Shown here piece after piece: positions 5,878 to 24,039 of a stretch of 64,000 nucleotides of DNA. The position numbers were made by a program, and so were the translations under genes. The DNA comes from an uncultured Gemmatimonadales bacterium. Lineage in GTDB: Bacteria > Gemmatimonadota > Gemmatimonadetes > Gemmatimonadales > GWC2-71-9. The stretch's first letter is position 1, and each line of letters starts with the position of its first letter. The stretch covers positions 128,001-192,000 of the forward strand of contig CAVVKJ010000005.1 in NCBI GenBank assembly GCA_963748815.1, given 5' to 3'. The notes under the pieces were generated by a model. That model made no database searches. It had not been told where the DNA came from and saw nothing but the letters and a program-made list of their open reading frames with translations.

Positions 5878-7119
5878 TCAGGGCCGCCAGGTGCCCTTCG
5901 CCACCTTCGGCACAAACGAATCCAGTCCCCTCGGCGGGAACTTGACCGTCTTCCCTGATTCCGCGCTCATGTAGGCCGCCATCAGCGTCCGCACCACCTC
6001 CACGCCGTCATCGAAGGTCAGCTTCGGCTTCTCGAGCCCGAGGAAGACCCGCACGAAGTGCCGATCCTCCGCCTCGTAGCCGTACGCCATTGGTTCATTG
6101 GCCACCACCGGCATCTGGCCCTGCTCGGCGTTCTGCTTCTCGACCAGGTCTTCTCCCTCCCGCCCCTTCACTTCCCGGCTGAAGAAGAGCTTGAGCCCGC
6201 TGTCGAGGGTGTTCCAGGTCATGGAGTACTCGGGGCCCAGCAGTTCTGCCGACAGCCGGAGGCCAGCGCCGACGAAGCTCCACGAGGTGGTGGCCTCGCC
6301 CAGCACGGTGTGCCCGGAGTCGGTCTCGAACTCGATGGTGACGCTGGCAAAGTCCTCGGCGGGGCGCTTGGCGTAGTCCACCGCGGGACCCATCGTCTTC
6401 TTGAGGCGGCGGACATACTCCGGGCGGGACCACTTGAGGCTGGCAATCCGCCCTGTGATGGCGACCGGCCGCACCGAAGAGCGGGGGGCGCCGGGCTTGG
6501 TCAGGAGATGGCGCACCACCTCCACCGAGTGGCACATCATGTCGTTCAGCACCCCGCCGCCCTGCAGTTTCCCCTGCCAGAACCAGGGCATGTGCGGTCC
6601 GCTGTGCTCCTCGGCGGCGCGCGCCAGGTAGGGGCGCCCGGTCGTGGCGGCACCCCGGGCCCAGAGGAGCATCCGGCCATGCTCCACCTGCGGGCTGAAG
6701 AGCTGGTTCTCGAGGTAGCCGTGGGCGATGCCCGCCTTCTTCGTCATGGCGGCCACCTGTTTTGCTTCCCTTACCGTGCGGGCGAGTGGTTTCTCACAGG
6801 CGAGGCCGAGGAGCTCCCCCTTGCCGCGGAGGACGGCGTCGGTGATCTCCTCGACGTTCTCGACGCGGGCGTGGTTGGGTCCGCAGAGCCAGATGGCATC
6901 GATGGCGGGGTCGGCGACCATCTCAGTGATGGAGCCGTACGCCTTGGCACGGCCCACATCGAGCTTGCGGGCGAACGCCGCGGCGTCCGCGGCGTTCTTC
7001 TTGTTGGGGCTCCAGACGCCGAGGACGTCGGCGTCGCGGACACCCTGCCAGGCCTGCATGTGGAACCGAGTGTTGAAGCCGCTGCCGATGAATCCGACGC
7101 CGAGCCGACGCTTGGGCAT
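5878..7119 (-). CDS. Gfo/Idh/MocA family oxidoreductase
   Basis: LGVGFIGSGF, CEKPLAR, GGGVLNDMMCH; C-terminal part of the artefactually fused ORF 5878..9477. Confidence 0.88.
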   Translation of the reverse strand: MPKRRLGVGFIGSGFNTRFHMQAWQGVRDADVLGVWSPNKKNAADAAAFARKLDVGRAKAYGSITEMVADPAIDAIWLCGPNHARVENVEEITDAVLRGKGELLGLACEKPLARTVREAKQVAAMTKKAGIAHGYLENQLFSPQVEHGRMLLWARGAATTGRPYLARAAEEHSGPHMPWFWQGKLQGGGVLNDMMCHSVEVVRHLLTKPGAPRSSVRPVAITGRIASLKWSRPEYVRRLKKTMGPAVDYAKRPAEDFASVTIEFETDSGHTVLGEATTSWSFVGAGLRLSAELLGPEYSMTWNTLDSGLKLFFSREVKGREGEDLVEKQNAEQGQMPVVANEPMAYGYEAEDRHFVRVFLGLEKPKLTFDDGVEVVRTLMAAYMSAESGKTVKFPPRGLDSFVPKVAKGTWRP

Positions 7120-7130
7120 GTCTACTCCAC

Positions 7131-7707
7131 TCAGGTGTAGCTGACACCCAGCTGCTTGAGCTGGGGCTCGGGACAGCCGGTCCATTCCGGGCACGAAGGT
7201 GTTGCCGATGTACTTGATGTCCTCGACGCCGACCTTGCTGGTCCAGTAGCCGGTGGCCGTCAGGTTCCGGAATTCGTTGAAGAACGCGGCAGGCTCCTTG
7301 AACGCTTCACCGGCCTTCTTCGGCCATGCGATGTCGTCCAGGATCAACTTCTGGTCGTGTGCGGAGGCGGCGACGAACGACGACTGAAACCGCTTCTGCG
7401 ATTCGGCGTCGAGCCAGGCGAGGCCGGTCCGCATCCGCTCCCGGTTGTCCATCTCCTCCGCCATCACGAAGTCCAGGAACTCGGGCACGCCGGCCTCGGT
7501 GGCGCTGGGGCCGCGCTCGTCGGCCGGGAGGGTCAGGTCCGCCAGCACGAACACCGTGGCGTACTCCTCGGTGGTGAAGAAGGTCGGCACATAGGGAGAG
7601 GCGCGATCGGCGGCCTTGCGAATCGTGTCGGCGCGGCAGCCGGCGGCGCCGGCAGCCAGCGCCACACCCAGCAGGCCGAGCATGTCTCGGCGGGAGAGGT
7701 CGGTCAC
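7131..7707 (-). CDS. Gluconate 2-dehydrogenase subunit 3 family protein (Tat chaperone subunit of GMC dehydrogenase)
   Basis: LSRRDML Tat motif, SATEAGVPEFLDF, TATGYWTSKVG..IKYIGN; frameshift near 7185. Confidence 0.85.
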
Positions 7708-9399
7708 AGGGCCCCCTGGCGGCGTTGCGCCGCGATGTACTCGGAGGTGCGCATCGAGAGCGCAAGGATGGTCCAGGTCGGGTTCTTGTCCGCCTGCGAC
7801 ACGAACGGCCCGCCGTCGGCCACGAAGAGGTTCTTCACGTCGTGCGCCTGGCAGTTGGCGTTGACCACGGAGCTGCCCGGGTCGTTGCCCATCCGGACGC
7901 AGCCGAGTTCGTGGATGATCTGCCCGCCGGTCGCGATGCCGTAGCCCTGTTCCCTGGTGGGCATCGGACTGAACACCTCGCCCCCCATCTCGTCGATCAG
8001 CGCGCGGAAGGTTTCCTGCATGTGCTTGACCTGCTTGTACTCGTAGTCGCTCCACTTCCAGTGGAACCGGAGGACCGGGATGCCCCACTGATCCTTGGTG
8101 TCGGGGTCGATTTCGCAGTAGGAGTCGGCGTTGGGAATCATCTCGCCGCGGCCGCTGAAGCCGATGGTGGTGCCGTAGAGCCGGCGGTAGGAGTCCTTCA
8201 GCGCCTTCCCATAGCCGCCGAACTCGGGGTAGTTCTGGATGCCGCCCATGAAGCCGTAGGACGGCTGGCCGCGGCCGCCCCAGATCTCGATGTGGTAGCC
8301 ACGCGGAAAGTCGAGCTTCTTGTTGTCGAGCCACCAGGGGCTGTAGAGGTGCCCGCCGCCCACGCCGTCCTCGTTGTGCGGAATCCCGTTCTCGAGCTTG
8401 GGGATGAACCCCGCCACGTCGGTGCCAGTGGTGTCGGTCAGGTACTTGCCCGACCACGCCGCTCGAGTTGGCCAGCCCGTGGGGAAACGAGCTGCTCCTG
8501 GAGTTGAGGAGGAGGCGCGCGGACTCACAGGCGCTGGCCGCCAGGACCACCACCCTGGCCCGGACCCGCTGGTCGGTGTTGGTGGTCTTGTCCACGTACG
8601 TGACACCGTCGGCGAGTCCGTTGGTGCCGACCGTCACCTCGCGCGCCATCGCGTTGGTGATCATCGTCAGCTTGCCGGTGGCCATGGCCGGGGGGATCAG
8701 GACGTTGGTGGAGGAGAAGTTGGCGTTGACGGCGCAGCCGCGGTTGCACTGCCCGCAGTAGTGGCAGGCGGGGCGGTCGCCCAGCGGCTGGGTGATGATC
8801 GAGAGTCGCGCCGGAATGCAGGTCACCTTGAGATTGTCGCAGGCCTGCTTCACCAGCAATTCGTAGCAGCGGGGCCTCGGCGCCGGCATGAAATGGCCGT
8901 CCGGCTCGTTCGGGAGGCCCTCGGCGCTGCCGAAGATGCCGATCAGGTCGTCCACCCGGTCGTAGTAGGGCGCGAGGTCGTCGTAGCTGATGGGCCAGTC
9001 GTCGCCCAGGCCGTCGAGGCTCTTCCGGCGGAAGTCGTTGGGGCCGAACCGGAGGGAAATCCGCCCCCAGTGGTTGGTGCGTCCCCCCACCATGCGCGCC
9101 CGCCACCAGCCGAATTTCGACCCGGGGGCCACGGTGTACGGCTCCCCCTCGATGTCCCATCCTCCGATGCAGGCGTCGAACTCGCCGAAGGGTCGCTCCT
9201 TGGTCCACGCGCCGCGCTTCGGCGTGTTGAACGGCCAGGTGAGCATGGCGGAGTCGGTGGTGTTGTCCCACGGCCCACCGGCTTCGAGCATCACGACATC
9301 GGCCCCGGCCTTGGTAAGCATGTACGCGGCCATGCCGCCGCCGGCGCCGGAGCCCACGATGCAGACGTCGTACACCTTCGACTGGTCCTGTTGAGTCAT
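7704..9399 (-). CDS. GMC family FAD oxidoreductase (glycoside 3-dehydrogenase-like), frameshifted
   Basis: DVCIVGSGAGG, GGRTNHWGR, CHYCGQCNRGC Fe-S motif, IHELGCVRMG, KNPTWTILALSMR; shift near 8455. Confidence 0.9.
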
Positions 9400-9551
9400 C
9401 GGCCCGTCCGGGGGAGGAGGATTCGGAAAGTACAGCGTGAGGCTCGGACCGGCTAGCGGGGCGTCAGCAAGTCTCACGCGTCTTCAGCGGCTCGGTGAGG
9501 CCCACCGCGATCTCACATTCCCGCTCCCCGCTTCCCTCCCCGCCTCTTTCA

Positions 9552-9704
9552 CCTCACCCCCTGACCCCCTCTCCGGCAAGCGGAGAGGGGGGACGTGCGT
9601 TCCGATTTCGATCGTCACCCCGGCGAAAGCCGGGGTCCATGTTTGGCCTTCCCCGCGTCTTTCACCTCACCCCCTGGCCCCCTCTCCACCATGTGGAGAG
9701 GGGG
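9552..9704 (+). repeat. REP mosaic: family 1 (9552-9592), family 2 (9613-9639), family 1 with ACCATGT loop (9665-9704)
   Basis: Palindromic units match those at 22624-22702 and 23411-23451. Confidence 0.85.
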
Positions 9705-9714
9705 TGTGAGATGC

Positions 9715-11557
9715 CTAGGGGGACTTACTGAACCGAGCCTGTCGCGGTGGGCTGGACGCGCCACTCGGCAGGAAGACCACGGCGGTCACGACAGTCCCGG
9801 CGCCGTCCACCGTCAGCGTGAGCGGGCCAGTGTACTCGGCTGAACTCTCCGTGGGGATTGTGCTGTCCAGCGTGTACCGAATGACCCCGTTGGCCAGTGG
9901 GCTCGTGAGGGTGACCACGGCGGAGCCGTTCGGCGTTGCCTGGTTCTTCTCCAGCCCCACCACGCTCGGCACCCGGTAGTTGACGCCCAGCCGGTCCAGC
10001 CCGTCGAGCGCGGAAGGCAGCCGCGCCATGAAGCTCGCCCAGTCCCGCGCCGAGGCAGGGCTCCAGGTCACTTCGGCCATGGCCAGCATCCGTGGAAAGA
10101 TCATGAACTCGACCCGATACGGGGTGGTCATGTACTCGGTCCACACATTGCCCTGGGCGCCGATGATGTGCGTGGCCTCCCCAGCAGTCAGCACATCCGG
10201 CACCGGCTCGAATCCGTAGACCTTGTCGAGCGGCACGTTGCCGCCGATCGAGAAGGGCTCGAGCGCTGGATCTCCCTGAGCGTAGTCGAAGTAGCTGTGG
10301 CTGGTGGGCGTCATGATCACGTCGTGCCCCTGCTGCGCCGCGGCGATGCCGCCGCTCACGCCGCGCCAGCTCATGACGGTGGCGTCGGGGGCGAGCCCGC
10401 CCTCGAGAATTTCATCCCACCCGATCAGCCGTCGGCCGTGCGCGTTCAGGAACCGTTCGATCCGCTGCACGAACCAGCTCTGGAGGGCATGTTCGTCGGC
10501 CAGCTGCTCCCGCTGGATGATGGACTGCGCCAGGTCGCTCGATTTCCACCGCGCCTTGGGCGCCTCGTCGCCGCCGACATGGATGTACGGCCCCGGAAAG
10601 AGGGCCATCACCTCGGTCAGGACGCCTTCAAGGAAGGCGAAGGTGGCCTCGCTCGGGCAGAAGATATCTTCCTCGACGCCCCACACCGTGCCGACCTCGA
10701 AGGGCCCCGGGGTGCAGGCCAGCTCGGGGTAGGAGGCGAGGGCGGCCATGGCATGACCCGGCATCTCGATTTCCGGGACGATGGTGATGTGCCGGGCGGC
10801 GGCATACGCCACTACCTGCCGGATCTCCTCCTGGGTATAGAAGCCGCAGTAGGGGATCCCGTCGCCGACATAGGGATTGAAGTTCTTGCTCGACGATCGT
10901 CTCGCGGCGACAGGAGCCGACGTCGGTGAGCTTCGGGTACGCCTTGATCTCGATCCGCCACCCCTGGTCGTCGGTCAGGTGCCAGTGGAAGGTGTTGAAC
11001 TTGTAGCGGGAAAGGAGGTCGATGTACCGCTCCACGAACGCCACCGGGAAGAAGTGCCGACTCACGTCGAGGTGCATGCCACGGTAGGGGAAGCGCGGGG
11101 CGTCGGTGATTTCGACGCGCGGCACCGTGCCCAACTCTCCGGCGTGGAGCAGCTGGCGGAAGGTCTGGAGGCCGTGGAAGAGGCCGGCCTCGGTCGGGGC
11201 CTCGATCACCACGCCCGACGACTGGCTGCTGAGGCGATAGCCCTCACGGCCCAGGATAGAGTCAGGGGCAATGAGTTGAAGTATCAGTCCGGCGGGTGGG
11301 GCGGGGCCGCTGCTGACCACCGGGCGCCATCCCAGTTCCGCCTCCAGCAGGTCGCTGGCGTAGGCCCCGAGCGCGGCGAGATCGCTCGGCTGGGGCGCCT
11401 GGAGCTGGATGCGGTGCCGCAGGGGAACGGCGCCGGTGTTCTGGATGACTTTCTTGGGGTACGGGATGAGCGGAAGGGGGGCCTGGGCGCTGACTGCCCG
11501 CACCGAGCAGACCGAGAGAACGAGGAGCAGTATCGCGCAGAGAATTCTCAAGGCCAT
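9715..11557 (-). CDS. Beta-N-acetylhexosaminidase (GH20) with C-terminal Fn3-associated/chitobiase-like domain, frameshifted
   Basis: RGMHLDVSRHFF, HWHLTDDQGWR, PEIEMPGH, HVGGDE, GAQGNVWTEY, IRYTLD; shift near 10890. Confidence 0.92.
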
Positions 11558-11598
11558 CTCCCAGGTGCCGGCACTCGATCTCGCTTGTCAATCGAAGC

Positions 11599-11665
11599 CC
11601 TTTGCGTCTCCTTGCGTCTTTGCGTCAACAGCTTTTTAGCGCAAAGACGCAAAGAGGCGCGAAGG
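11599..11665. repeat. Family 4 long hairpin (CTTTGCGTCT.. / ..CGCAAAGACGCAAAG)
   Basis: Long inverted repeat; second copy at 50328-50396. Confidence 0.75.
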
Positions 11666-11730
11666 ACTCCTCTTGAAACGCAGGCCTGCGTATTCTTGTG
11701 TCACGCATAATACAATTAAACGGGGTATCC

Positions 11731-12342
11731 ATGCATCGGTTCGGCCTTGTCGGGATGTTGTTGCTTGCCGCTTCACCCCTCGCAGCCCAATCCGGCATCG
11801 AGTTTACCCCGACAATTGGCTATCGCTTCGGCGGCACGGTCAACAGCGACGTCGGGAAGTTCTCGGCCAACGACAACCTGGCCTGGGGTGCGACCCTCGG
11901 GTTTCGCGTCAAGCGTGACGGGCTGGTGGAGCTGGTCTACAGCCGGCAGTCGACGAGCATCGATTTCAAGCCAGACACCGCCGGGAGGTACACCGTGGGC
12001 GACGCCGCCATCGAATACCTCCAGATCGGCGGCGCGCTGGAATTCGGCAACAATCCCAACACCAAGCCCTTCTTTGCCCTGACCGTGGGCGGCACCCACC
12101 TCGCCCCACAGAGCGACAATCTCGGCAGTGAATGGGTGTTCTCCTTCGGCGGCGCCCTCGGCCTCAAGACCTACCTGAACCAGCACATCGGTCTCCGGGC
12201 CCAGGCTCGGCTCTGGATGAGCACCCTCTCCTCGAATACCGAGTTCTGGTGCAGCCTGCCGGGTTATTGCGTCATCACCGCATCGGACGGAGTGTTTTTC
12301 ACGCAGGGCGAGGTGAGCGGTGGGGTGATGTTCGTGTTCTGA
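11731..12342 (+). CDS. Outer-membrane beta-barrel protein
   Basis: Signal peptide, alternating beta-strand pattern, C-terminal Phe (GVMFVF). Confidence 0.75.
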   Translation: MHRFGLVGMLLLAASPLAAQSGIEFTPTIGYRFGGTVNSDVGKFSANDNLAWGATLGFRVKRDGLVELVYSRQSTSIDFKPDTAGRYTVGDAAIEYLQIGGALEFGNNPNTKPFFALTVGGTHLAPQSDNLGSEWVFSFGGALGLKTYLNQHIGLRAQARLWMSTLSSNTEFWCSLPGYCVITASDGVFFTQGEVSGGVMFVF

Positions 12343-12343
12343 C

Positions 12344-12472
12344 GGGGTGGCCTCACGGCCACCCCTGTCGGTCGTCGACGCAATCTCGGAGCGCGGAATC
12401 CGCTTTCGGTATTGTCCTACCGATCACGAAGTCGCGTGTCCTCAGGCGAGGGGTGGGCGTGAGCCCACCCCT
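12344..12472 (-). repeat. Family 3 three-hairpin element between convergent genes
   Basis: Terminal hairpins GGGGTGGCC-N4-GGCCACCCC and GGGGTGGGC-N4-GCCCACCCC; same layout as 48874-48994. Confidence 0.75.
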
Positions 12473-13556
12473 CAATGAAGCGGAAGCGGAGGTGCCGCAC
12501 CGGAGGCCTTGGCCCAGTCCATCCCCACCGCCGCCCCCACTGTCGCCGCAATCTGCGACTGCGTCAGCTCCGGCAGGCTGCGCCGGACGCCGAGCCCCGG
12601 CGTCTCCGGCCCAAGCACCGCCGCCCAGATATACTCTGCCCCTTCCACATCGGTGCCATGATTGCGCCACGCCTTCAGCCCGCTCCCGCGCCCGTGATCG
12701 GTGGTGATGATGAAGGTCGTCTTGCCGGCGTACTCCGGCATGGCCTGCATCGTGTTCCAGAGATCCCGGATGAACCCGTCCACCCGGTGCGCCGAAGCCA
12801 GGTACTGGTCGTAGCGGCCCTCGTGGGCCCATTCGTCGGTTTCGCCGTAGCCGATGTAGAGCGCCTGCGGGCGCTCGGTCCGGACGTAGTCCATCACCAC
12901 CGCCTGCATGAAGGCGTCATACGGCATCTCCTGCCAGACGCGGGTGGTGGTGGCGTACAGGGTATCGAGCAGGACTCGGCGCGGGAGCAGTGTCCCCCGG
13001 AAAGGGCTCGTCCCAGCCGGCCCGGACCCACATCGGGGCACGCTCCTGGTTGAAGATCGGTCGCGAAGACGTCCCAGGTGCCGAACGCCGCCACCTTTCC
13101 CGTAAACTCCGGTTTTCCCGCCAGCCACTCGAACACCGTCACGTTCGGGTTGGGGCCGTAGTCGTTCCGGTCGATGCGGGGGTCCGCCTTGCCGGTCAGC
13201 ATCTCGTTGTAGCCGGGGTAGGAAAACTTGTACCCGTTGGTCACCACCATCGTGCTGCCCAGGTCGCGGTCACCGAGGATCTGGCCATCCCGAGCGATGA
13301 CACTCCACATGAATGGCATCAGCGCCCGGCTGTTGGCCATCTTGTCGCCCACGAGGAAGGCGCGCCGCAGCGCGGCGGTGTCCTCGACGCCGCCATACTC
13401 GGCGTTGTTGAGCGCCGGATCGGCGCCGCCGAAGAGCTCCTGCCAGCGGAAGCCGTCCGTCACGATGAGGACCACGTTCTGCCGTCGGGGGGACTGAGCG
13501 GTGGCGGGAGCTGCCACGAGGAGGAAGAGGAAGAGCGCGCCGATGAGCCTATGCAT
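12472..13556 (-). CDS. Alkaline-phosphatase superfamily metalloenzyme, secreted, frameshifted
   Basis: NVVLIVTDGFRWQE, FSYPGYNE, GETDEWAH, TTDHGRG; indels around 13000-13070. Confidence 0.8.
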
Positions 13557-14395
13557 TCTTGAACCTGAGCTGTCGGAGGTAGGCGTAGCTGGCGGCCGCC
13601 GAGGCGAAGGGGTCGGTGGCGTCATCGTGTTCGACGAACCCGTGGCGGACTCCAGCTTGCTTTGCGTGGGCAAAGATCGCCGCCCAGTCCACGGAACCGG
13701 CACCGACGTCGACCATTGACCCGTCGGCGGAGCGCCCCTTCAGGTGCAGCAGCGAAAACCGGCCGGGCCACGTTGCAAAGTAGGAAAGCGGGTTGCCGTC
13801 TCCCTCGAGCACCCAGTAGATGTCCATCTCGAAGCCGACCACGGCCGGGTCCGTCTCGCCGAGAAGGATGTCGTAGGGAATCTGGCCGTCTATCGGCGTG
13901 AGTTCGGTGGCGTGGTTGTGGTAGGCGAACTTGAACCCCGCCTCGCGGGCAGCCTTCCCGTACTCGTTGAACCGCTCAGCCCACCGACGGAAGTCGTCGA
14001 GCGTCTTCCGCTGTTCGGCATCGATCCAGGCCAGGACGAGGTATTCGATGCCCAGCGTGCGTGCGGCGGACACGGTGGTGCGCCATCCCCCCTCAAAGTC
14101 TTCGACCGTCAGGTGGGCGGCAGGCGCCGTGAGGCCGGCATCGTCCAGCACCTTTCGCGTCTGGGCAGGGGTGGTGCCCCGGTTCCAGGCGAATTCCACC
14201 TCCTTGTAGCCGAGGGCCGCCAGCCGTTGCAGATGTGCCTGAAAAATCGGCTTCCAGCGCCTGCCGCACCGTATAGAGCTGGATGCCGATGCTCTTGAGT
14301 TTGTCAGCCGGTACCGGGTCGCGAGGAAACGGGAGGGCAGCACCGAGGCTGGCGGCACCGGACAGCCGAATGAATTCTCGTCGGGAGAACCTCAC
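13549..14395 (-). CDS. Sugar phosphate isomerase/epimerase (AP2-like TIM barrel) with Tat signal, frameshifted
   Basis: FSRREFI Tat motif, IGIQLYTVR, AYHNHA, FEMDIYW, HLK, VEHD. Confidence 0.85.
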
Positions 14396-14697
14396 GCGCG
14401 ACCCTGCAGCTTGGCCACCCACCAGCGGAGCCCGACAAAGAGAAACCGCCAGTCCTTGAAGAACTCGGGCGGCTTCCCCTCGAAGGCGTGCCCGATGAAC
14501 TGAAAGACCCATCCCACCACGAACAGGGTCAGCGGGATGCGCCAGAAGCCGGGTACCCAGATGCCGACGAGGAAGAGCGGTATTGACACGGCAATGAGCG
14601 GGATGCCTATGGTATGACAGACCCGGTTGACCGGGTTCTGGTGACTGGTGGCGTATTGTGCAATCCACTCATCCCAGCTCTTGCCGCCGAGCGCCAT
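14392..14697 (-). CDS. DUF962/Mpo1-like small membrane protein
   Basis: YATSHQNPVNRVCHTIGIP...FQFIGHAFEGKPP. Confidence 0.85.
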   Translation of the reverse strand: MALGGKSWDEWIAQYATSHQNPVNRVCHTIGIPLIAVSIPLFLVGIWVPGFWRIPLTLFVVGWVFQFIGHAFEGKPPEFFKDWRFLFVGLRWWVAKLQGRA

Positions 14698-14762
14698 GGA
14701 TTCTCTCCGAAAGGGGTCCCTCCAAACGTTCAACCCCGCGCGACGGAGGGCAAGAGGGATAG

Positions 14763-14798
14763 AAAAACCCCGCCCGGCAACGGCCGGGCGGGGTTTCT
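14763..14798 (-). terminator. Intrinsic terminator after the kamA-family gene
   Basis: Minus strand AAACCCCGCCCGGC-CGTT-GCCGGGCGGGGTTTTT, about 20 bp past the stop. Confidence 0.8.
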
Positions 14799-14816
14799 CG
14801 GGGTCGAGCCTGATGG

Positions 14817-16001
14817 TCAGGCCAGCTTGCGCTTCGGAACCTTGCTGGTTCCCTTGGCTCGCTTCGCCGGCTTCTTCAACTGTAGCGTCGGCTGGAAGAG
14901 ATACTCGGGATCGGTTCGGCGGCCCATGGCCGCTATCGCCTCCTCCTCGTTCGGCTGACGGTACACGAACTGGTCGCCCCGGAAGTTGCGGAGGACGACC
15001 TCTTCGTCGTTCATCGAGATGACGTATTCCGGCAGGAGGGGAATCTTCCCGCCGCCGCCGGGGGCGTCGATGACGAACTGCGGGTTGGCCAGGCCGCTGG
15101 TCCAGCCGCGCAGCGACTCCATGATCTGGATGCCGGTCTGGACGCTGGTCCGGAAGTGCTCCGCCCCGGCCACCTGGTCGGCCATGTAGATGTAGTAGGG
15201 CCGGACCCGGGCCTGCATCAGGCGGTGCATCAGCTGCTTCATGACCTCGGGGGTGTCGTTGACCCCGCGGAGGAGCACGGTCTGGCAGCCGAGCGGGATG
15301 CCGGCGTCGGCCAGCATGCCGAGACCCTTCACCGCCGCCGGCGTCAGTTCGTCGGGGTGGTTGAAGTGGGTGTTGATCCACACCGGGTGGTACTTCTTGA
15401 TCGTGGCGCAGAGTTCCGGCGTGATCCGCTCCGGGAGATGGCAGGGAACGCGGCTCCCGATCCGGATGATCTCGATGTGCTTGATGCTCCGCAGGCGGGA
15501 GAGGATGGCGTCCAGCCGCCGGTCGTTGAGGAGCAGCGGGTCGCCTCCCGACATGATGACATCGCGGATTTCGGTGTGGCTCTCCAGGTACTGGAACGCC
15601 GACTCGAACTGCGACATCGGGATCTTCTCGGGGTCGCCCACCTTCCGCCGCCGGGTGCAGAACCGGCAGTAGCTGGCGCAGACGGGGCTGACCAGGAAGA
15701 GCGCCCGGTCGGGGTAGCGGTGCGTGATGTTCGGCACCGGGCTGTCCTCGTCCTCGTTCAGGGAGTCCACAATGCCGTCGTGGACCTCGAGTTCCTGCAC
15801 GGTGGGCACGTACTGGCGCCAGATCGGGTCGTCGGGGGACTTGATCAGGTCCACCATCGCCGGCGAGATCCGGAACTCGAAATTCTCCGCGGCCAGCCGG
15901 AGGCGGTCGAGCTCGGGGAAGTTCTCGGCACCAAACCGGCTGGCGAGCGTGTCGAGCGACGCGATCGAGTTCTTACGCAGGACTTCCTGCCAAGTCTCCA
16001 T
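14817..16001 (-). CDS. kamA: KamA-family radical SAM 2,3-aminomutase (lysine 2,3-aminomutase-like)
   Basis: THRYPDR, CASYCRFC, SGGDPL, THFNHP, DAPGGGGK PLP-lysine motif; substrate not proven. Confidence 0.85.
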   Translation of the reverse strand: METWQEVLRKNSIASLDTLASRFGAENFPELDRLRLAAENFEFRISPAMVDLIKSPDDPIWRQYVPTVQELEVHDGIVDSLNEDEDSPVPNITHRYPDRALFLVSPVCASYCRFCTRRRKVGDPEKIPMSQFESAFQYLESHTEIRDVIMSGGDPLLLNDRRLDAILSRLRSIKHIEIIRIGSRVPCHLPERITPELCATIKKYHPVWINTHFNHPDELTPAAVKGLGMLADAGIPLGCQTVLLRGVNDTPEVMKQLMHRLMQARVRPYYIYMADQVAGAEHFRTSVQTGIQIMESLRGWTSGLANPQFVIDAPGGGGKIPLLPEYVISMNDEEVVLRNFRGDQFVYRQPNEEEAIAAMGRRTDPEYLFQPTLQLKKPAKRAKGTSKVPKRKLA

Positions 16002-16016
16002 GCCAGTACCCCATCC

Positions 16017-16517
16017 TCAGGTTGTTGCGGGAACCTCGAAATACTTCACGAACGTCACCTGGTCGTCGCCCGGCGCGTAGAAGTCCGGGATCATGCCGAC
16101 GGCCCGGTACCCCCGGGCCTCGTAGAAGGCGCGCGTCGGTGCGTAGTCCACCCGGCCCGCCGTCTCGACCACTATGAGCCGCGCCACACCCGCGAGGCGC
16201 CGCTCCATCTCCTCTACCAGAAGCGTGCCGAGTCCGAGCCCGTGCTGCGCCGGATCGACCGCCATCCAGTAGAGATCCCAGGTGGCCACGGTGCAGGGCG
16301 TCGGTCCCCAGCAAATCCAGCCCGCCAGCCGACCGTCCACCTCGACGCCGAGCGCCGTGTAGTCCGGGCTGCCGGCCACCGCGGCGTCGAAGACTTCCAG
16401 CGCCACGGGGACTTCGTCGTCTCGAAAGAGCCCGACCGCCCGCGTGATTTCCTCGAGTCGGGTCCGGTCGGCGGTGGTCAGCCCACGGAGCTGCCCGGCA
16501 ACCGCCGCCCGCGTCAC
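16017..16517 (-). CDS. GNAT family N-acetyltransferase
   Basis: WDLYWMAVDPAQHGLGLG, TRAFYEARGY; GTG overlaps the upstream stop. Confidence 0.85.
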   Translation of the reverse strand: MTRAAVAGQLRGLTTADRTRLEEITRAVGLFRDDEVPVALEVFDAAVAGSPDYTALGVEVDGRLAGWICWGPTPCTVATWDLYWMAVDPAQHGLGLGTLLVEEMERRLAGVARLIVVETAGRVDYAPTRAFYEARGYRAVGMIPDFYAPGDDQVTFVKYFEVPATT

Positions 16518-17521
16518 GAAGTGACCCGCCCCGACAGGGCGCCCTCCGCGAGCGCGACGCGGCCCCGCTCCAACGCTTCCTCGGCGATCTGGAGGACCAG
16601 CGCCGAGTAATCCCATCCGAATGCCCGACCCATGCGCGCAAGTCCGGCGTCGCTCGAGAGGTCAGGATCGGGATTCAGTTCGAGTACCCACGGCGTACCG
16701 TCGGCATCGAGCCGCAGGTCCACTCGTCCATATCCCTCGCACTTTGCCAGAGCGCGCCACGCGCGTTCTGCAACACTTACCAGCTTTTTTGCCGTTGCCT
16801 GGTCCACCTTGGCGGGGCAGACCGGTATGGTGTGCAGGTCGTAGTCGCTGCCCGCATTCCACTTGGCGGCGTAGGTCACGATGGGCGGCTTGCCTTCGCC
16901 GAGCCCGGTAAAATCGATTTCGGAAATCGGCAGGGCGGTGGTCCCCACGAAGCCGACGTTGAATTCGCGCCCTTCCACATACTCCTGCACCAGGACGTCT
17001 TCCCAGGTGGCCGTCACCTTGGCGAGCCGTTCGAGGAGCGCCTCTGGGGTGTGGCAGACGGACCCTTCGTCGATGCCGACACTGGCGTCTTCCATTGACG
17101 GCTTGACGATGACCGGGAACCGCAGCCCCTCGGGTACCACCGGCTCGTGCACCAGCGCAAAGGCCGGGACCGGGAGCCCCTCCTCCCGGAGGAGGGTGTT
17201 GGCCACATGCTTCCGGTGGCAAATCGTGATCGGCCAGGAGCGGCACCCGGTAAACGGCACCCGGGTCAGCTCGAGCGCGGCCACCACGTAGTCCTCGAAC
17301 CGCGCGTGGCCGTTGATGCCCTCGCAGAGGTTGAAGACCAGGTCGGCCTTCTGGCAGCGCTCCATCCAGCCGAGGTCCGCCAGGTACACCGGGATCATCT
17401 CGGTGGCGTGGCCCGCCGCCTTCAGGATCCCCTCGATTTCCCGGACATTGGCGAGGACGGCGGCGACGTCGGCCGCGCTCCACTCGTCGCTGCCGCCATC
17501 ATGGAGGAGGGCAACCCTCAC
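16514..17521 (-). CDS. D-Ala-D-Ala-ligase-like ATP-grasp enzyme (second copy)
   Basis: VFNLCEG, PVIVKP..EDASVGI, QEYVEGREF, YGRVDLR, LELNPDP. Confidence 0.85.
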   Translation of the reverse strand: MRVALLHDGGSDEWSAADVAAVLANVREIEGILKAAGHATEMIPVYLADLGWMERCQKADLVFNLCEGINGHARFEDYVVAALELTRVPFTGCRSWPITICHRKHVANTLLREEGLPVPAFALVHEPVVPEGLRFPVIVKPSMEDASVGIDEGSVCHTPEALLERLAKVTATWEDVLVQEYVEGREFNVGFVGTTALPISEIDFTGLGEGKPPIVTYAAKWNAGSDYDLHTIPVCPAKVDQATAKKLVSVAERAWRALAKCEGYGRVDLRLDADGTPWVLELNPDPDLSSDAGLARMGRAFGWDYSALVLQIAEEALERGRVALAEGALSGRVTS

Positions 17522-18624
17522 GCCGCGACCTCGGCAAGGAGCCGCCGACCGCCGGTGATCCGCCGCCAGGCGATGTCGGCCACTGTCTGGATCAGCTCGT
17601 CGTAGTCCAGGCCGGCCGCCCGCGCCGCCTTGGGGAAGCAGGAATTGTCGCGCGGATCGGGGAGGACGCCCGGCAGCGGGTTCAGCTCGACGATCATCGG
17701 GTTGCCGTCGGCGTCGCAGCGGACGTCGATCCGGCACCAGTCCCGGCAGCCGAGGGCGTGGTACGCGCCGAGGCAGGCCTCGCGGATCCGGCGCGCCAGC
17801 GATTCCGGGATCGGCGCGGGGCACTGATAGATGTCGAGCGGATTGTCGAGGGTGTCCCAGAGCCACTTCGCCTCGTAGCCGTAGATGGGCGGGGCGCCCT
17901 CGGGGAGGTCGGCGTAGTCCATGGCCACGATCGGGAGGCAGCGCGCCTCGGCGCCGTTGCCGAGCACGGCGACGGTGAACTCGGCGCCCGGCAGCCAGGC
18001 TTCGATGAGTACCGGCTGACGGTAGGTGGTCAGCAGGTGCTCGACCCGGCCGACCAGGGCGTCGCGGTCGTGGCAGAGGTTGTCGACCGTGATTCCCTTG
18101 CCCGATCCCTCGCAGGCCGGCTTGACGAATACCGGGAAGGGGAGGGTGCAGGTGGCGGCGTCGGCCACCGACTCGGCGATCCGGAACGGCGCCGTCGGGA
18201 CGCCGCGCGCCACCATCGTCTCCTTGGCCCGCCCCTTGTGGAGGGCGAGACCGAGGGCGAGCGGGTCGGAGGCGTGACAGGGAATGCCGTAGAACTCGCA
18301 GATGGCGGGGACGTGCCCCTCGCGGTTCGGGCCGTAGAGCCCTTCGGCGATGTTGAACACGAAATCGGGACGGGCATCGGCCAGCTTCTGCGGGAACGAA
18401 GCGTCGGCCTCCAGGCGAATGACCTGGCCGAGCGGCTGCAGCGCGCGCTCGATGGCGTCGATGGTGCCGGGTTCGTCCCACTCGGCGTAGAGATCGGGTT
18501 GGTCGAGATCGGTACGGAGGGCGCGGAGGGCGGTGTTCCGGTCGACAGGGGAGGCGAAGTCTCCCCCAGCGATCGCTGCGGCTTGGGGCTTCAGGTTGTA
18601 GGCGAGTCCGATACGAACTCCCAA
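17518..18624 (-). CDS. D-Ala-D-Ala-ligase-like ATP-grasp enzyme (first copy)
   Basis: VFNIAEG, FVKPACEGSGKGI, YGYEAKW, RIDVR, ELNPLPG; TTG start after an AGGGGGAG RBS. Confidence 0.85.
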   Translation of the reverse strand: MGVRIGLAYNLKPQAAAIAGGDFASPVDRNTALRALRTDLDQPDLYAEWDEPGTIDAIERALQPLGQVIRLEADASFPQKLADARPDFVFNIAEGLYGPNREGHVPAICEFYGIPCHASDPLALGLALHKGRAKETMVARGVPTAPFRIAESVADAATCTLPFPVFVKPACEGSGKGITVDNLCHDRDALVGRVEHLLTTYRQPVLIEAWLPGAEFTVAVLGNGAEARCLPIVAMDYADLPEGAPPIYGYEAKWLWDTLDNPLDIYQCPAPIPESLARRIREACLGAYHALGCRDWCRIDVRCDADGNPMIVELNPLPGVLPDPRDNSCFPKAARAAGLDYDELIQTVADIAWRRITGGRRLLAEVAA

Positions 18625-18633
18625 ACACTCCCC

Positions 18634-18720
18634 CTAAAAAAAGCTGCCACCGAATTGCGGCGAGCCGACGTGCTTGCTGTTGTCGGACACTAAGTTAAGA
18701 AAAAGGGGAGCGAAGCACAA
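18634..18720 (-). promoter_or_regulatory. Sigma70-like promoter and structured leader of the ligase-GNAT-kamA operon
   Basis: TTGTGC-17 bp-TAACTT (18720-18692), then two hairpins and a T7 run just before the RBS. Confidence 0.55.
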
Positions 18721-18763
18721 TAGATTTTTGGCGGATTGGTGGACTGAAGTTGGGAAGGAGAAA

Positions 18764-18856
18764 GGACTTAGGACTTGAGGACTGAGGAGCTGAGGACTGA
18801 GGTCGGTATCGAAACTCCTGCTCCTTCCGCCTTCCGCCCCTCAAGTCCTCAGTCCC
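18764..18856. repeat. Family 5 heptamer (GAGGACT/AGTCCTC) tandem runs in inverted arrangement
   Basis: GGACTTA GGACTTG AGGACTG... then CCTCAAGTCCTCAGTCC; similar runs at 42109-42135 and 51651-51675. Confidence 0.65.
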
Positions 18857-19350
18857 TTTCTCCTTTTCCGCCTTTGTAGACCCGAAACTCCGACCGCGAA
18901 CTCGTTCCTGTCGTCCGCTCCACGGAGTTCGGTCGACACCAGCGCCCACGCGTTTCCCTCGGGGAGAGGGAAGTGCGCGTCCCCCTCGGGGGAGGCGTGC
19001 ACCAGGGTCAGGTAGATCTTCTCGGCGCGCGGCATCGCCTGGCGGTAGATGTCGGCGCCGCCGATCACGAACACCTCGCCGGTCGGGCCGGCCTCGGTGA
19101 ACGCCGCCTCGAGGCTCGGTACGCGAGTGGCGCCCTCCGGGCGGAACTCCGGGTTCCGGCTGACGACGAGGTTCCGGCGGCCGGTCAGTCCCTTCCCGAT
19201 CGACTCGAAGGTCTTCCGTCCCATGATGACGGTGTGCCCCAGGGTGAGCGCCTTGAACCGGCGGAGGTCGGCGGAGAGCCGCCAGGGCAGGGCGTTGTCC
19301 CGGCCGATGACGCCGTTCTCGGCGACGGCCACGACCAGGGCGATGCTCAC
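18841..19350 (-). CDS. folA: Dihydrofolate reductase (3' end uncertain)
   Basis: [44 protein letters not shown]. Confidence 0.92.
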
Positions 19351-20142
19351 ACCGCCACCTTGCCGGGGATGTGGGGGTGCGGGTCGTAGCCGACGACCTC
19401 GAAGTCCTCGAAGCGGAAATCGAAGAGGGAGGTGACGGCGGGGTTGAGGCGTATCGTGGGCAGGGGCCGCGGGGTCCGTGACAGCTGGAGCCGGGCCCCG
19501 TCCAGATGGTTGGTATATAGGTGGGCGTCGCCGAAGGTATGGATGAACTCTCCGGGCCGGAGCCCGGTCACCTGCGCCACCATCAGGGTCAGGAGGGCGT
19601 AGCTGGCAATGTTGAATGGCACGCCGAGGAAGGCGTCGGCGCTCCGCTGGTAGAGCTGGCAGGAGAGGCGGCCGTCGGCCACGTAGAACTGGAAGAGGGC
19701 GTGGCAGGGGGCCAGCGCCATGTCGGGAATGTCGGCGGGGTTCCAGGCGCTCACGATGAGTCGCCGGGAATCGGGGTTCCGGTGGATTTCCTCCACGCAC
19801 CTGCGTGATCTGGTCGATGTGCCCGCCGTTCGGCGTGGGCCACGAGCGCCACTGCCGTCCGTATACCGGGCCCAGTTCGCCAGACGGGTCGGCCCAGTCG
19901 TCCCAGATGCTGACGCCGTGCTCCTGCAGGTAGCGGACGTTGGTGTCTCCCCGCAGGAACCAGAGCAGCTCGTACACAATCGACTTCATGTGGAGCTTCT
20001 TGGTGGTGACCAGCGGAAACCCCTCGGCCAGGTCGAAGCGCATCTGGTGACCAAACACGCTGAGTGTGCCGGTGCCTGTTCGGTCCGACTTGGCGGCGCC
20101 GGTGTCGAGGATGCGGGAGAGGAGGTCGAGGTAGGGCTTCAT
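19347..20142 (-). CDS. thyA: Thymidylate synthase, frameshifted
   Basis: [44 protein letters not shown]; shift near 19798. Confidence 0.95.
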
Positions 20143-21746
20143 CTGGCCAGCTCCAGGCGCGCGCGGGCGTAGCCGCCAGTGCGTTCGATGTCCCGCAGGG
20201 CTCGGGCAATGTCGTCGGGAATGCTCGCGGCGGCGGCGCCGACCTTCAGGCGAGCGATGGGCACTTCCCCGGCCGGGAGCTTGATCCCCGGATTGAGGAT
20301 TCCGGCTGGATCGAAGGCGGTCTTGATGGAACGGAAGAGCTCCACCAGCTCCGGTCCGAACACCGACTCCAGGGCGTCGACCCGCAGCCGACCGTCGCCG
20401 TGCTCACCGCTCAGGGTGCCGCCGAGGGCGGCAGTCCCGGCCGAGACCTCGTTGAGCACGGCGGTGACCCCGGCCTCCCAGCCCTGCTTCGTGGTGTCCA
20501 CCATCAGGTTCACGTGGATGTTGCCGTCTCCCGCGTGGCCGAAGATGACGGCGCCGAGGCCGTGGGCCTCGGTGACCCGCCGGACGAGTCGAACATAGTC
20601 CGCCAGGCGGGAAATGGGGACGGCGCCGTCCTCGATGACCTGCATCGAGCGGTGGGTTTCGGGGAGGCGGGCCAGAATGGGACTCGCGGCGTGCCGGATT
20701 TCCCAGAGTTCGGCGGCGTCGTCCGGGGTGATGGCGGTCTCCACCTCGCTGGTCCAGGCGCTGACGGCGCGGACAGCGTCGCCCACCGCGCCGCGCGCGG
20801 CGGCGTCAGTGGCCCGCTCGAACTCCACGAGGAGGATTGCCTCGGCGCCGGCGAGGAGGCTCGGCACCGAGCCACCTTCGCGGGCCACCAGCTCGAGGAA
20901 GGTGCGGTCCAGCAGCTCCAGCGCGGCGGGCCGGAGGGGGCGAAGCGCGGAGACCACGTCAGCGAGGTCATCGAGGGAACGGAGCGCCATGCGGACGCCC
21001 GCGGTCGCTCCCGGCACCGGCGCCAGTCGGCACTCGAGTCCGGTGATGAAGCCGAGCGTGCCTTCGGAGCCGATCAACAGGTCGAGCAGGTCGCCAGAGT
21101 CGAGGACGGCGTCCACCGCGTAGCCAGAGGAGTTCTTGCGGACCCGCGGAAAGCGGGAGCGGATGACCGGTTCGGCGGCGGTGACCTGGTTCCGGACTTC
21201 GGCCCACCGGGGTGACAGGTTCGCGGCGTCGCCCCGCGTCCACCGGCGCAGCTCGGCGTCCGACCCGACCCACTCGATGGCGGTGATCCAATTCCGGACA
21301 CTTCCGATGCGAACCGCCGAGGCGCCGGCGGCGTTGGTTGCGGCCATCCCGCCGAGGGTGGCCCAGCGGCCGCTCGACGGCATGGGAGGAAACCGGAGGC
21401 CGTGCGGGCGGGCGGCGGCGTCGAGCGCGCCGGCGGCGACGCCGGCGGAGATCCACGCGCTTCGGTTGGCCGGATCGACCTCGAGGCGAGTCGGACTGAG
21501 CGCCGTAAGGTCGACGATCACGCCGTCACCCACGTTGCCGCCCCCCATCGCGCTGCCGGCGCCGCGTGCGACGAGTGGAGTACCAGTGTCGGAGGCCCAG
21601 CGGACCAGGCGCTGCAGGTCGGGCAAATTGACGGGGACTGCGACGGCGGCGGGCACGATTCGATAGATGCCGGCCCCCTCGGCGTAGGCGGCCCGGGCGC
21701 GATCGTCGGTCCTGAACTGGCCCTGCAGGCGTGGTCCCCTCGGCAT
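20139..21746 (-). CDS. FAD-binding oxidoreductase (D-lactate/glycolate-dehydrogenase-like FAD-linked oxidase)
   Basis: [53 protein letters not shown]. Confidence 0.88.
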
Positions 21747-21816
21747 GGGCGAAACGTAGGGCGGTGCACGGCGTCCGCCAAGCGAACCGCCGATTCGGCT
21801 GCTATCTTGGTGTCCC

Positions 21817-22623
21817 ATGTCTGATACTGCGCGCCCCCAGCTGATCCGCCTCGAAGTGGACCGTCGACTCGGCCACGAATGGGATGAGTGGGACGGCAAC
21901 CCATTGCCCAACCAGGGCAATTTCGACTCCCCGCCGCACCTCTTCTTCCAGTGGTCGGCGGCGGGGCTGGCCGTGGCACTCGGCATCGCGGCACTCGCCC
22001 TCTACCTGCTCGGCCCCCGGATTGGCCTCGTGTTGCCCGGCGTCCCATCCTATCTGTGGATCGGGCTGGGCGTTGTATCCGGCGCATCGTGGCTCTGGTG
22101 GCTGCTCATCCTGCTCAGCTACGCCACCGACCGGTCATTCCTCCCCGCGGTGCTGGCGGAGCGGGGGCCGTTCCTCCGGCTGATGACCATGACCTCGCGG
22201 GTGGCGGACCGATTCGGCCGGCGCGACTGGGTGGAGAATGCCGCGGTCAAGGTGTACAACGCCCTCGCGGTGGTACGGGCCAAGGCGGTGGGTAAGGGTG
22301 AACTGCTGCTGCTCATCCCGCGCTGCCTATCCAAGCCCGCTATCGACGGCGTCCTGGCACTGTCCGGTAAATACGAGGTGCCGGTGTTCGTGGCCACGCG
22401 TGGTCAGCTGGCCCGGCGCGTCATCCGGGAGCGGCGGCCGCGTGCCATCGTGGCGGTGGCGTGCGAGCGGGACATGGTGAGTGGGTTGCATGACGTGGCG
22501 GGACGAGTGCCGGTGCTCGGGCTCACGATGACGCTGCCGGCGGGGCCGTGCAAAGATGCAGGGCTCAATCTGGTGCAGCTGGAGGAGTGGGTGAAGGTCT
22601 TCGTGGAAGAGGTGGGGCAGTAG
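21817..22623 (+). CDS. DUF116 domain membrane protein
   Basis: LLLIPRCL, FVATRG..AR, AIVAVACERD, PCKD. Confidence 0.8.
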   Translation: MSDTARPQLIRLEVDRRLGHEWDEWDGNPLPNQGNFDSPPHLFFQWSAAGLAVALGIAALALYLLGPRIGLVLPGVPSYLWIGLGVVSGASWLWWLLILLSYATDRSFLPAVLAERGPFLRLMTMTSRVADRFGRRDWVENAAVKVYNALAVVRAKAVGKGELLLLIPRCLSKPAIDGVLALSGKYEVPVFVATRGQLARRVIRERRPRAIVAVACERDMVSGLHDVAGRVPVLGLTMTLPAGPCKDAGLNLVQLEEWVKVFVEEVGQ

Positions 22624-23451
22624 CCTCACCCCCTGACCCCCTCTCCGGCAAGCGGAGAGGGGGGATCTTATTTGCCGTCACCCCGGCGAAAGCCGGGGTC
22701 CATCGTAGATTCGATTGTCACCCCGGCGAAAGCCGGGGTCCATGTTGTTGCTGCCCACTTGCCCCGCCTAGTTCGCCTCACCCCCGGTCCGTCTCTCCGG
22801 CATCGTCCTCACCCCCTGACCCCCTCTCCGCCATGCGGAGAGGGGGACGACCTGCACGCCCCTGGATCCGCCCTCTCCGGCAAGCGGAGAGGGGGAACGT
22901 CGTGCAGGATTCGGATCAGGGGCTCTCATGGGAGATCACCTATCGTGTAGCATGCGATACCGTCCAGTCGGTTTGCTCAGGACGCTTGCCAGAAGAATGC
23001 GGAAGGAGCCGACCGGCGCCGAACGCACCGTCTGGACAGTACTCAGGGACCGCCGGTGCTTGGGTTACCGATTCAAGCGGCAAGTTGTGATCGAGGGGTT
23101 GATCGTCGATTTCTACTGTCGCGAGTTGCGCCTGGCCATCGAACTTGACGGGGCGGTCCACCAGACGCGGGAGGGACGACTCCGGGACCAGGCGCGGGAC
23201 GCGCACCTGCGGTCATGCGGGATCCGGGTAATCCACCTCCAGAACGAGCAGGCCTCCGGGGCGCGTCTCCGTGCGGTTCTCACGGAGTTCGTCCTGCGTC
23301 CCCCCTCTCCGCTTGCCGGAGAGGGGGTCAGGGGGTGAGGACGAAAGGCGGGGCCGGGGGCCAGGGGAGCAGGAAACCTGGACTCGCTTTCGCGGGGTGA
23401 CGGCAATAATCCCCCCTCTCCACATGGTGGAGAGGGGGACAGGGGGTGAGG
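22624..23451. mobile_element. Putative DUF559 REP cassette 1: nuclease gene inside inverted REP arrays
   Basis: Left array 22624-22895 and right array 23300-23451 are inverted; the unit fills the whole gap between two convergent stop codons. Mobility is inferred. Confidence 0.6.
22952..23338 (+). CDS. DUF559 endonuclease-fold protein
   Basis: ARRMRKEPT.AE..W..LR.RR..G.RFKRQ, IVDFYC..LRLAIELDG.VH, RD.ARD..L; C-terminal PSPLAGEG encoded by the REP. Confidence 0.9.
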   Translation: MRYRPVGLLRTLARRMRKEPTGAERTVWTVLRDRRCLGYRFKRQVVIEGLIVDFYCRELRLAIELDGAVHQTREGRLRDQARDAHLRSCGIRVIHLQNEQASGARLRAVLTEFVLRPPSPLAGEGVRG

Positions 23452-24039
23452 CTACTTCGCGTCCGGCGGCCTCCCCTTCGGAACCGGCTTCCCGGTGGCA
23501 CTATCCGGCCGCGCCGCGCCGGTTGAATCCGGCATCACGCCCGGCGGCGGCCCCTTCGGCTCCTCCGCCCCCGGCACCGGGTACCGTTTCGCCATGTCGG
23601 TCAGCACGCGCGCCACCCGCACCGCCGCGACGTTGTCGCTCGGTGCCTGCTGGTCGAGCTCGCGGGGCGGCAGTGAGGGATTGGCCAGCGGCCGCACCGC
23701 CGTCTCCACCCGGATCGACCCCCGCTCCTTCCCGTAGGCGTTGACCCATCCCCGCACCCGCACGACGCTGTCTCCAAGAATGCGCGCATCGGTCGGCTGC
23801 CCGGTGAGCGCGCTGAACCACTCCGTCTCCAGGTAGCCGTCCTTCGGCTCGACCCGGCTGACCGGGATCGAATCCGACTTCAGCTGTTCGGCGAGCACCT
23901 CCGTCGCCTTGGCCACGTCGAGATCCACGACCGCTTCCGCGGCGTTTGGCAGCGGGCCGAATGCAGGGCGAGTTGTGTACGGTTGACAGGCGATCACAGC
24001 CAACAGGCACATCGCGCCGGGATGCCTTGCCCGGCGCAT
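23452..24039 (-). CDS. Hypothetical lipoprotein
   Basis: Lipobox-like VIAC, DGYLETEW, GC-rich codon usage; start uncertain. Confidence 0.6.
   Translation of the reverse strand: MRRARHPGAMCLLAVIACQPYTTRPAFGPLPNAAEAVVDLDVAKATEVLAEQLKSDSIPVSRVEPKDGYLETEWFSALTGQPTDARILGDSVVRVRGWVNAYGKERGSIRVETAVRPLANPSLPPRELDQQAPSDNVAAVRVARVLTDMAKRYPVPGAEEPKGPPPGVMPDSTGAARPDSATGKPVPKGRPPDAK

Follow-up and report, generated by a model that had tools for sequence, protein, structure and literature searches.

Two diverged Ddl-fold ligases, a GNAT acetyltransferase and a lysine-type aminomutase form a conserved operon that may make a β-lysine conjugate

What does a bacterium make with two ATP-grasp ligases of the D-alanine-D-alanine ligase (Ddl) type, a small GNAT acetyltransferase and an aminomutase encoded side by side? 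The question is raised by a locus in a 64,000-nt stretch of DNA (the window, on which all operon coordinates are numbered) from a Gemmatimonadales metagenome-assembled genome, the host, whose assembly of 3.16 Mb is 86% complete. Four minus-strand open reading frames (ORFs) follow one another in the order ligase A, ligase B, GNAT and KamA (Table 1), with the Pfam domains Dala_Dala_lig_C in both ligases, Acetyltransf_1 in the GNAT and Radical_SAM plus LAM_C in KamA. GTGA overlaps join A to B and B to the GNAT, and 15 nt separate the GNAT from KamA, bearing out an earlier note on this DNA, which had described four co-oriented genes with the first three overlapping. The four genes are one operon. 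They belong to a widespread cassette that functions as one unit and whose function is uncharacterised. Its product is probably some β-lysine amide metabolite; more specifically, and tentatively, the sequences lead us to favor an acetylated β-lysyl peptide amidated with a polyamine.

We followed the cassette in 80 Gemmatimonadales loci found with ligase A and in a distant set of 80 metagenome loci. The order A-B-GNAT-KamA is kept in 64/80 Gemmatimonadales loci; seven carry A-B-GNAT without KamA over at least 3 kb downstream, and contig ends interrupt the other nine. The same order recurs in 22/80 of the metagenome loci (GC content 31-72%), so the neighborhood survey proposed in the earlier note finds the arrangement conserved in both sets. 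A KamA-A arrangement is seen in 15/80 metagenome loci, several with ligase B convergent and with neighbors that look archaeal by eye. Among 41 related genomes, the host included, the A-type ligase and the GNAT occupy an identical 27, and KamA is found in all of these, with one additional match that is weak and partial; these genomes are kin rather than independent samples, but the co-occurrence of A and GNAT is nonetheless exact. In 7 of the 64 full loci, a member of another KamA subfamily, with 27-31% identity, stands in for KamA, sometimes with one gene in between; it keeps Arg134 and both substrate-binding Asp residues. The closest plasmid match of this alternative type is a Streptomyces protein annotated as lysine 2,3-aminomutase (62%), and the type is found elsewhere in 6/7 genomes whose operon lacks an adjacent KamA.

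Gene fusions join the same partners. KamA is fused to ligase A in 4/150 representatives, and a B-type ligase domain is present in 76/82 of the long GNAT relatives, a few of which are frameshift read-throughs. Source names on the fusion and cassette relatives include Acidobacteriota, Anaerolineae, Planctomycetes, Phycisphaerae, Marinimicrobia and Elioraea. Tandem two-ligase proteins account for 38/150 representatives; the idea that all of these are A-B fusions was rejected, as only 14 show the B-type motif, with 12 carrying a different partner half and 12 not resolved by motif search. P0130, P0132, P0135, P0138 and their kin are tandem proteins that combine an A half with a partner lacking Gly276 yet not of the B type.

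The aminomutase sets the likely building block. The operon KamA aligns with PDB 2A5H, which we take to be the lysine 2,3-aminomutase of C. subterminale, at an E value of 3e-112. It scores above the cut-off of TIGR00238 (290.6/199.2), with the CxxxCxxC motif at Cys108/112/115 and the pyridoxal phosphate lysine at Lys319. Substrate contacts in this enzyme are made by Arg134, Gln258, Asp293 and Asp330. Equivalents of these four and of Lys337 are retained in the window KamA, and those of Arg134, Asp293, Asp330 and Lys337 are invariant in operon KamAs (53/53 close, 37/37 distant), while two adjoining positions differ (Asn257 to Cys, Gln291 to Met). The two Asp motifs that had been matched by eye to the lysine-binding positions do align with Asp293 and Asp330, as counted on the HMMER alignment. 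KamA lies under the cut-off of the AblA/KamA equivalog TIGR03820 (455.7/525.4), yet this is its best-scoring model; it falls far short of the models of the arginine and glutamate enzymes and of EpmB (e.g., 318.6/600 for the arginine 2,3-aminomutase BlsG and 231/369 for EpmB), and the Asp330 position is Thr in one annotated BlsG. Because the substrate residues are invariant, the lysine model scores best and BlsG has Thr where KamA keeps Asp, the sequence points to a likely lysine-type rather than arginine-type enzyme with β-lysine as its product. Of the two residues offered earlier for the conjugate, β-lysine thus gains support and β-arginine loses it. The operon KamA is the only KamA-family match found in the host genome.

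The two ligases fall below all Ddl and Van cut-offs, ligase A scoring 165/243 (NF002378) and 139/246 (TIGR01205) and ligase B 126/243 and 112/246, whereas a canonical Ddl on another host contig passes both models (328/243 and 294/246). In E. coli DdlB numbering, used for all ligase residues, the ATP/Mg and acyl-phosphate residues of Ddl are Lys97, Lys144, Glu187, Lys215, Arg255, Asp257, Glu270 and Asn272. The D-Ala subsites are lined by His63, Ser150, Tyr216, Gly276, Ser281 and Leu282, among which Ser281 holds the carboxylate of the amino-acid nucleophile. For Glu15 and Arg255 we use the roles described for Ddl (PMC5717164, in part). None of the eight ATP/Mg and acyl-phosphate residues varies among 80 sequences of A and 76 of B; since these residues, Arg255 included, are kept, both ligases are probably active. 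The subsites, in contrast, have changed: His63 is Glu and Tyr216 is Trp in both ligases, and both positions are replaced in every one of these A and B sequences. Together with the missed cut-offs and the canonical Ddl elsewhere in the host, these differing substrate residues speak against the outcome that the earlier note named as refuting its reading, ligases that only make D-Ala-D-Ala and complement ddl.

Beyond these shared changes, A and B have diverged from each other. Ligase A retains the equivalents of Glu15, Ser150, Gly276 (read by motif, the automatic alignment having misplaced it) and Ser281 (80/80 close, 81/82 distant), Leu282 becomes Cys, and Asp50, Arg101 and Glu102 are additionally conserved (80-82/82 distant sequences), with Glu94 also given as a conserved acid. 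This pattern would fit an acyl donor with two amines and an amino-acid nucleophile. In ligase B all six D-Ala subsite residues are changed, Ser150 to Ala, Gly276 to Asp, Ser281 to Ala and Leu282 to Gly in the window protein, which also has Gly149 to Asp; Glu15 is not conserved. Distant B sequences follow suit, with Ala or Gly at Ser150 and Asp or His at Gly149 in 128/128, Asp or Cys at Gly276 in 127/128 and Gly at Leu282 in 125/128; the Ser281-to-Ala change is found in 75/76 close and 81/128 distant sequences. Read in the same way, the B pattern would suit an acyl donor that is longer or blocked, together with a carboxylate-free nucleophile. A structural model of the A-type relative P0137, not of the window protein, has a predicted local distance difference test (pLDDT) score of 94.9 and Ddl structures as its best matches (template modelling score of 0.73 against P. 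aeruginosa DdlB).

The GNAT (166 aa) shows nine conserved acidic positions versus three basic ones. Its only solved relative is PDB 2R7H (E 1e-25), with conserved motifs common to both; the title of that entry, 'putative D-alanine N-acetyltransferase of GNAT family', is a putative name only, and a literature search on it found no paper using that name. AblB (TIGR03827) is not among the family matches of the operon GNAT.

Which amine might ligase B accept? The gene directly upstream of ligase A encodes a pyruvoyl arginine decarboxylase in 12/80 metagenome loci, with an extra ATP-grasp-like gene in between in two of them. This intervening gene (L144:5329-6243 and L158:6084-7004) gives a weak PF14397 match and represents a distant third type. 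Nine of the 12 loci also have an agmatinase match and six a deoxyhypusine-synthase-like (DHS-like) match, and one representative each of the decarboxylase, agmatinase and DHS-like proteins passes its NCBIfam cut-off. DHS-like SpeY proteins produce homospermidine (PMC9992855, in part); that article mentions neither an aminomutase nor an ATP-grasp enzyme. The active-site residues of ligases A and B in the polyamine-adjacent loci are the same as elsewhere, and S-adenosylmethionine methyltransferase genes follow B or GNAT in these loci. In one protein, P0369, a GNAT of this family is fused to a domain whose nearest matches are acetylpolyamine amidohydrolases (E 4e-72), and the surplus of acidic positions in the GNAT is a further polyamine lead. 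The host itself encodes SpeA, a homospermidine-biosynthesis protein and arginase, all over cut-off, along with AguA/AguB-like proteins that score under it. Of the peptide or polyamine conjugate suggested in the earlier note, the polyamine option thus gains circumstantial support from gene context, P0369 and the ligase residues, while the conjugate itself is something we infer.

Several observations weigh against a polyamine-ended product. In a FastTree tree, the 12 polyamine-adjacent loci fall into a single clade (support 0.85) and may therefore represent one event. No KamA was seen in their fetched flanks, so polyamines might replace β-lysine there rather than join it, and no polyamine genes appear in the fetched flanks (up to 6 kb) of the 80 Gemmatimonadales loci. 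The GNAT-deacetylase gene occurs in 1/121 genomes of the phylum, ~87 kb from that genome's operon, and no close acetylpolyamine amidohydrolase turned up in the host (best match 35%). At the residue level, Ser281 is retained in 7/37 B sequences of one group, and the A-KamA fusion P0160 has Gln at the Asp293 position.

From the observed gene layout, co-occurrence, fusions and residue patterns we infer the reactions and product of a plausible pathway. KamA would convert L-lysine to L-β-lysine, which ligase A would activate as an acyl phosphate and join to an amino acid whose carboxylate is free, which might be another β-lysine. Ligase B would then activate the peptide carboxyl and couple it to a carboxylate-free amine, most likely putrescine or homospermidine. 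The GNAT would acetylate a terminal amine on the substrate or product of ligase B, and in lineages that have one, the acetylpolyamine-amidohydrolase-type domain could reverse this acetylation. The predicted product is a small, acetylated, positively charged β-lysine conjugate, possibly polyamine-ended. A bolder and rather doubtful extension is a widespread, undescribed class of β-lysyl-peptide-polyamine polycations, made by the Ddl-derived ligase pair across many phyla of bacteria and probably in some archaea too. Acetylation would switch the charge, a leader attenuator would set the synthesis in Gemmatimonadales, and some large phages would use the KamA and A half to make a β-lysine polycation for DNA packaging.

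Six viral contigs bear on the last point. They carry an A-type ligase (Table 1) with B and GNAT not in view, KamA stands beside the ligase in two, and in 4/6 the ligase lies near portal, major head, terminase or DNA polymerase genes. The occurrence of KamA with A, without B or GNAT in view, suggests that KamA plus ligase A is a minimal unit. One of the six loci, L207, is possibly host DNA at a prophage edge.

Other products have to be weighed against the polyamine-ended peptide. Ranking close behind it is a possible acetylated β-lysine di- or tripeptide (or amide) that contains no polyamine and resembles a compatible solute; here the GNAT would acetylate the epsilon-amine of β-lysine and B would take the blocked substrate. 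The co-occurrence and fusion evidence fits such a peptide equally, the lack of conserved Glu15 and Ser150 in B across lineages is what a blocked or longer acyl donor would lead one to expect, and the aminobutyl-like tail of β-lysine could explain both the acidic GNAT pocket and the polyamine-type deacetylase. However, B's loss of the serine that holds the nucleophile carboxylate and the 12 loci with polyamine genes immediately next to A are then left unexplained. It is a good deal less probable that the ligases attach β-lysine to a macromolecule, be it a protein side chain or terminus, a lipid head group or an envelope polymer. The phage A-type ligases among head, portal or terminase genes, with KamA in 2/6 contigs, could be read in this way, and the widened nucleophile site of B could accept a protein amine, but by eye no substrate, carrier or transporter gene recurs among the neighbors in either locus set, and the model of the A-type relative has the closed Ddl fold of a small-molecule enzyme.

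Two other roles for these genes are both very improbable. As cell-wall enzymes, the ligases would make D-Ala-D-Ala or a variant peptidoglycan terminus, and Ddl is indeed their best family and fold match and the name that source databases give them; against this stand the missed cut-offs of A and B, the canonical host Ddl on another contig, the replacement of His63 and Tyr216 throughout, and the 14/41 related genomes that show no A-type ligase. Equally hard to credit is an operon in which KamA and the GNAT make N-epsilon-acetyl-β-lysine, or KamA feeds the modification of EF-P, with the ligases as passengers. A KamA with an acetyltransferase does follow the known AblA/AblB logic. Yet the host genome, at 86% completeness, gives no match to the AblB-type acetyltransferase model TIGR03827 and no EpmA over cut-off (best genX match 237/287), and relatives show the GNAT fused with ligase B, and KamA with ligase A. 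The statement that no efp/epmA, lysine-fermentation or mur genes are adjacent also holds, none being recognized by eye among the ORFs at 9000-24000.

The operon can be compared with several known systems. AblA/AblB is the pathway to N-epsilon-acetyl-β-lysine (models TIGR03820 and TIGR03827), and the operon resembles it in having a lysine 2,3-aminomutase next to an acetyltransferase and in the kept substrate-binding residues of the aminomutase. It differs in a KamA below the AblA cut-off (455.7 vs 525.4), in a GNAT of a 166-aa family without an AblB match, and in the two added ligases, which relatives fuse to KamA or the GNAT. The AblA/AblB analogy drawn earlier is thus a loose one that holds for the pairing of enzymes and fails for the identity of the GNAT. 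With Ddl enzymes (E. coli DdlB; VanA, VanG and kin), the ligases share the ATP-grasp fold, the ATP/Mg residues and Arg255, but they lie outside the mur cluster, have Glu and Trp in place of His63 and Tyr216 and, in B, lack Ser150, Gly276 and Ser281.

Ngg (GNAT plus ATP-grasp) synthesizes N-acetylglutaminylglutamine amide (NAGGN), and Gsp, YgiC and YjfC are peptide- or glutathionyl-spermidine ligases. The proposed pathway would have in common with Ngg a carrier-free amide formation coupled to acetylation, and with the Gsp family a polyamine nucleophile. Unlike these systems, which have no aminomutase, the operon uses a diverged, Ddl-derived ligase pair, and none of the Ngg, Gsp, YgiC or YjfC families is among the top 25 NCBIfam matches of either ligase. 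For viomycin and capreomycin, lysine 2,3-aminomutase supplies β-lysine for amide attachment through a nonribosomal peptide synthetase (NRPS) adenylation/peptidyl carrier protein (A/PCP) module and a condensation (C) domain (PMC9811515, in part), whereas the operon has no carrier protein or NRPS. The scores against EpmB and genX likewise place it outside EpmA/EpmB-type β-lysylation of EF-P. By analogy, then, the operon would work like carrier-free ATP-grasp amide pathways while being a member of none of those tested.

A full-text literature search, with subscription journals largely outside its coverage, found no paper on the cassette; a 2009 survey of ATP-grasp gene neighborhoods could, reportedly, have predicted the operon. 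The cassette ligases are common and almost always labeled 'D-alanine-D-alanine ligase', which distorts annotation of cell-wall synthesis and vancomycin resistance. The cassette would mean that microbes from soil, sediment and sludge make a metabolite not yet described, and that β-lysine serves purposes other than fermentation, EF-P, osmolytes and antibiotics. If a Ddl-fold ligase does accept polyamines, the range of reactions known for this family would widen, and with four small soluble enzymes the question is directly testable.

Expression signals flank the operon. The earlier note had assigned it its own promoter and terminator. The terminator is present downstream of KamA, with a folding energy of -40.1 kcal/mol for a 76-nt segment, and the promoter is supported by conservation: a TATTG-N-TAnnTT motif stands 5' of ligase A in 69/75 related loci versus 0.07% of shuffles, though a generic sigma-70 scan returned 0 sites. 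Between this promoter-like motif and the start codon of ligase A sits a terminator-like hairpin, which may be an attenuator. A run of at least five T occurs near the ligase A start in 54/75 related loci. The hairpin has 25 distinct variants in which the stem is mostly retained, some pairs are altered on both sides and one pair shows T-A to C-G changes; in these pair counts, made without a shuffle control, the register was picked to maximize pairing and three to four rows are mis-anchored. An Rfam search of the leader gave no relevant family and only sub-threshold miRNA-type matches. Contigs from RNA runs of relatives (mostly 85-97% alike; four runs from four studies) touch all four genes and become sparse past the predicted operon ends, but contigs can show neither transcription nor a single transcript and we therefore do not use them as evidence.

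Table 1. Coordinates of the operon features in the window and of the viral loci that carry an A-type ligase.
Feature	Coordinates	Strand	Details
Promoter-like motif	18692..18720	minus	-35 at 18720-18715, 17-nt spacer, -10 at 18697-18692
Leader hairpin + U7 run, terminator-like	18636..18666	minus	just before/touching ligase A ribosome-binding site
Ligase A, Ddl-fold ATP-grasp	18624-17518	minus	368 aa, TTG start, PF07478
Ligase B, Ddl-fold ATP-grasp	17521-16514	minus	335 aa, PF07478
Small GNAT acetyltransferase	16517-16017	minus	166 aa, PF00583
KamA-family radical-SAM/PLP aminomutase	16001-14817	minus	394 aa, PF04055+PF12544
Intrinsic terminator closing operon	14799-14762	minus	17-bp perfect stem + U run
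Viral A-type ligase locus	L207:446-1468		
Viral A-type ligase locus	L208:6672-7697		
Viral A-type ligase locus	L210:703-1716		
Viral A-type ligase locus	L211:3181-5302		
Viral A-type ligase locus	L212:5811-8032		
Viral A-type ligase locus	L213:7001-8017		

Plasmid searches yielded remote relatives only, in other gene contexts. One, on the Thioflavicoccus mobilis plasmid pTHIMO01 (L117:3515-8996), is a ligase relative that shares the His63-to-Glu change; its neighbors are diaminobutyrate transaminase and SbnA/ornithine-cyclodeaminase-like genes and a convergent KamA, and we read this locus as another diamino-acid ligation cluster. On a plasmid of Streptomyces sp. SAT1 (L123:2015-15962), a KamA of the second type lies within a cluster that also holds ATP-grasp, GNAT, PGM1-like peptide ligase, N-hydroxylase and tRNA-ligase-like genes.

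The host carries two further Ddl-like ligases. One (L111:5444-6556, at ~418.4-419.6 kb of contig C5) is non-canonical, with His63 to Glu and no Gly276, and is convergent with a gene for a putative zinc-binding metallopeptidase (PF15887), the two forming a separate orphan pair. The other (L112:5799-6905, at ~370 kb of contig C10) is a B-like ligase that stands alone, with no adjoining GNAT or KamA; it scores below the Ddl cut-offs and groups with B-type sequences. Upstream of the operon, thyA (18841-20142, minus strand) is split over two reading frames and its first half continues into folA, and further genes near the operon look frameshifted by eye (5878-9477 and 9715-11557); these frameshifts are likely sequencing errors in the assembly.

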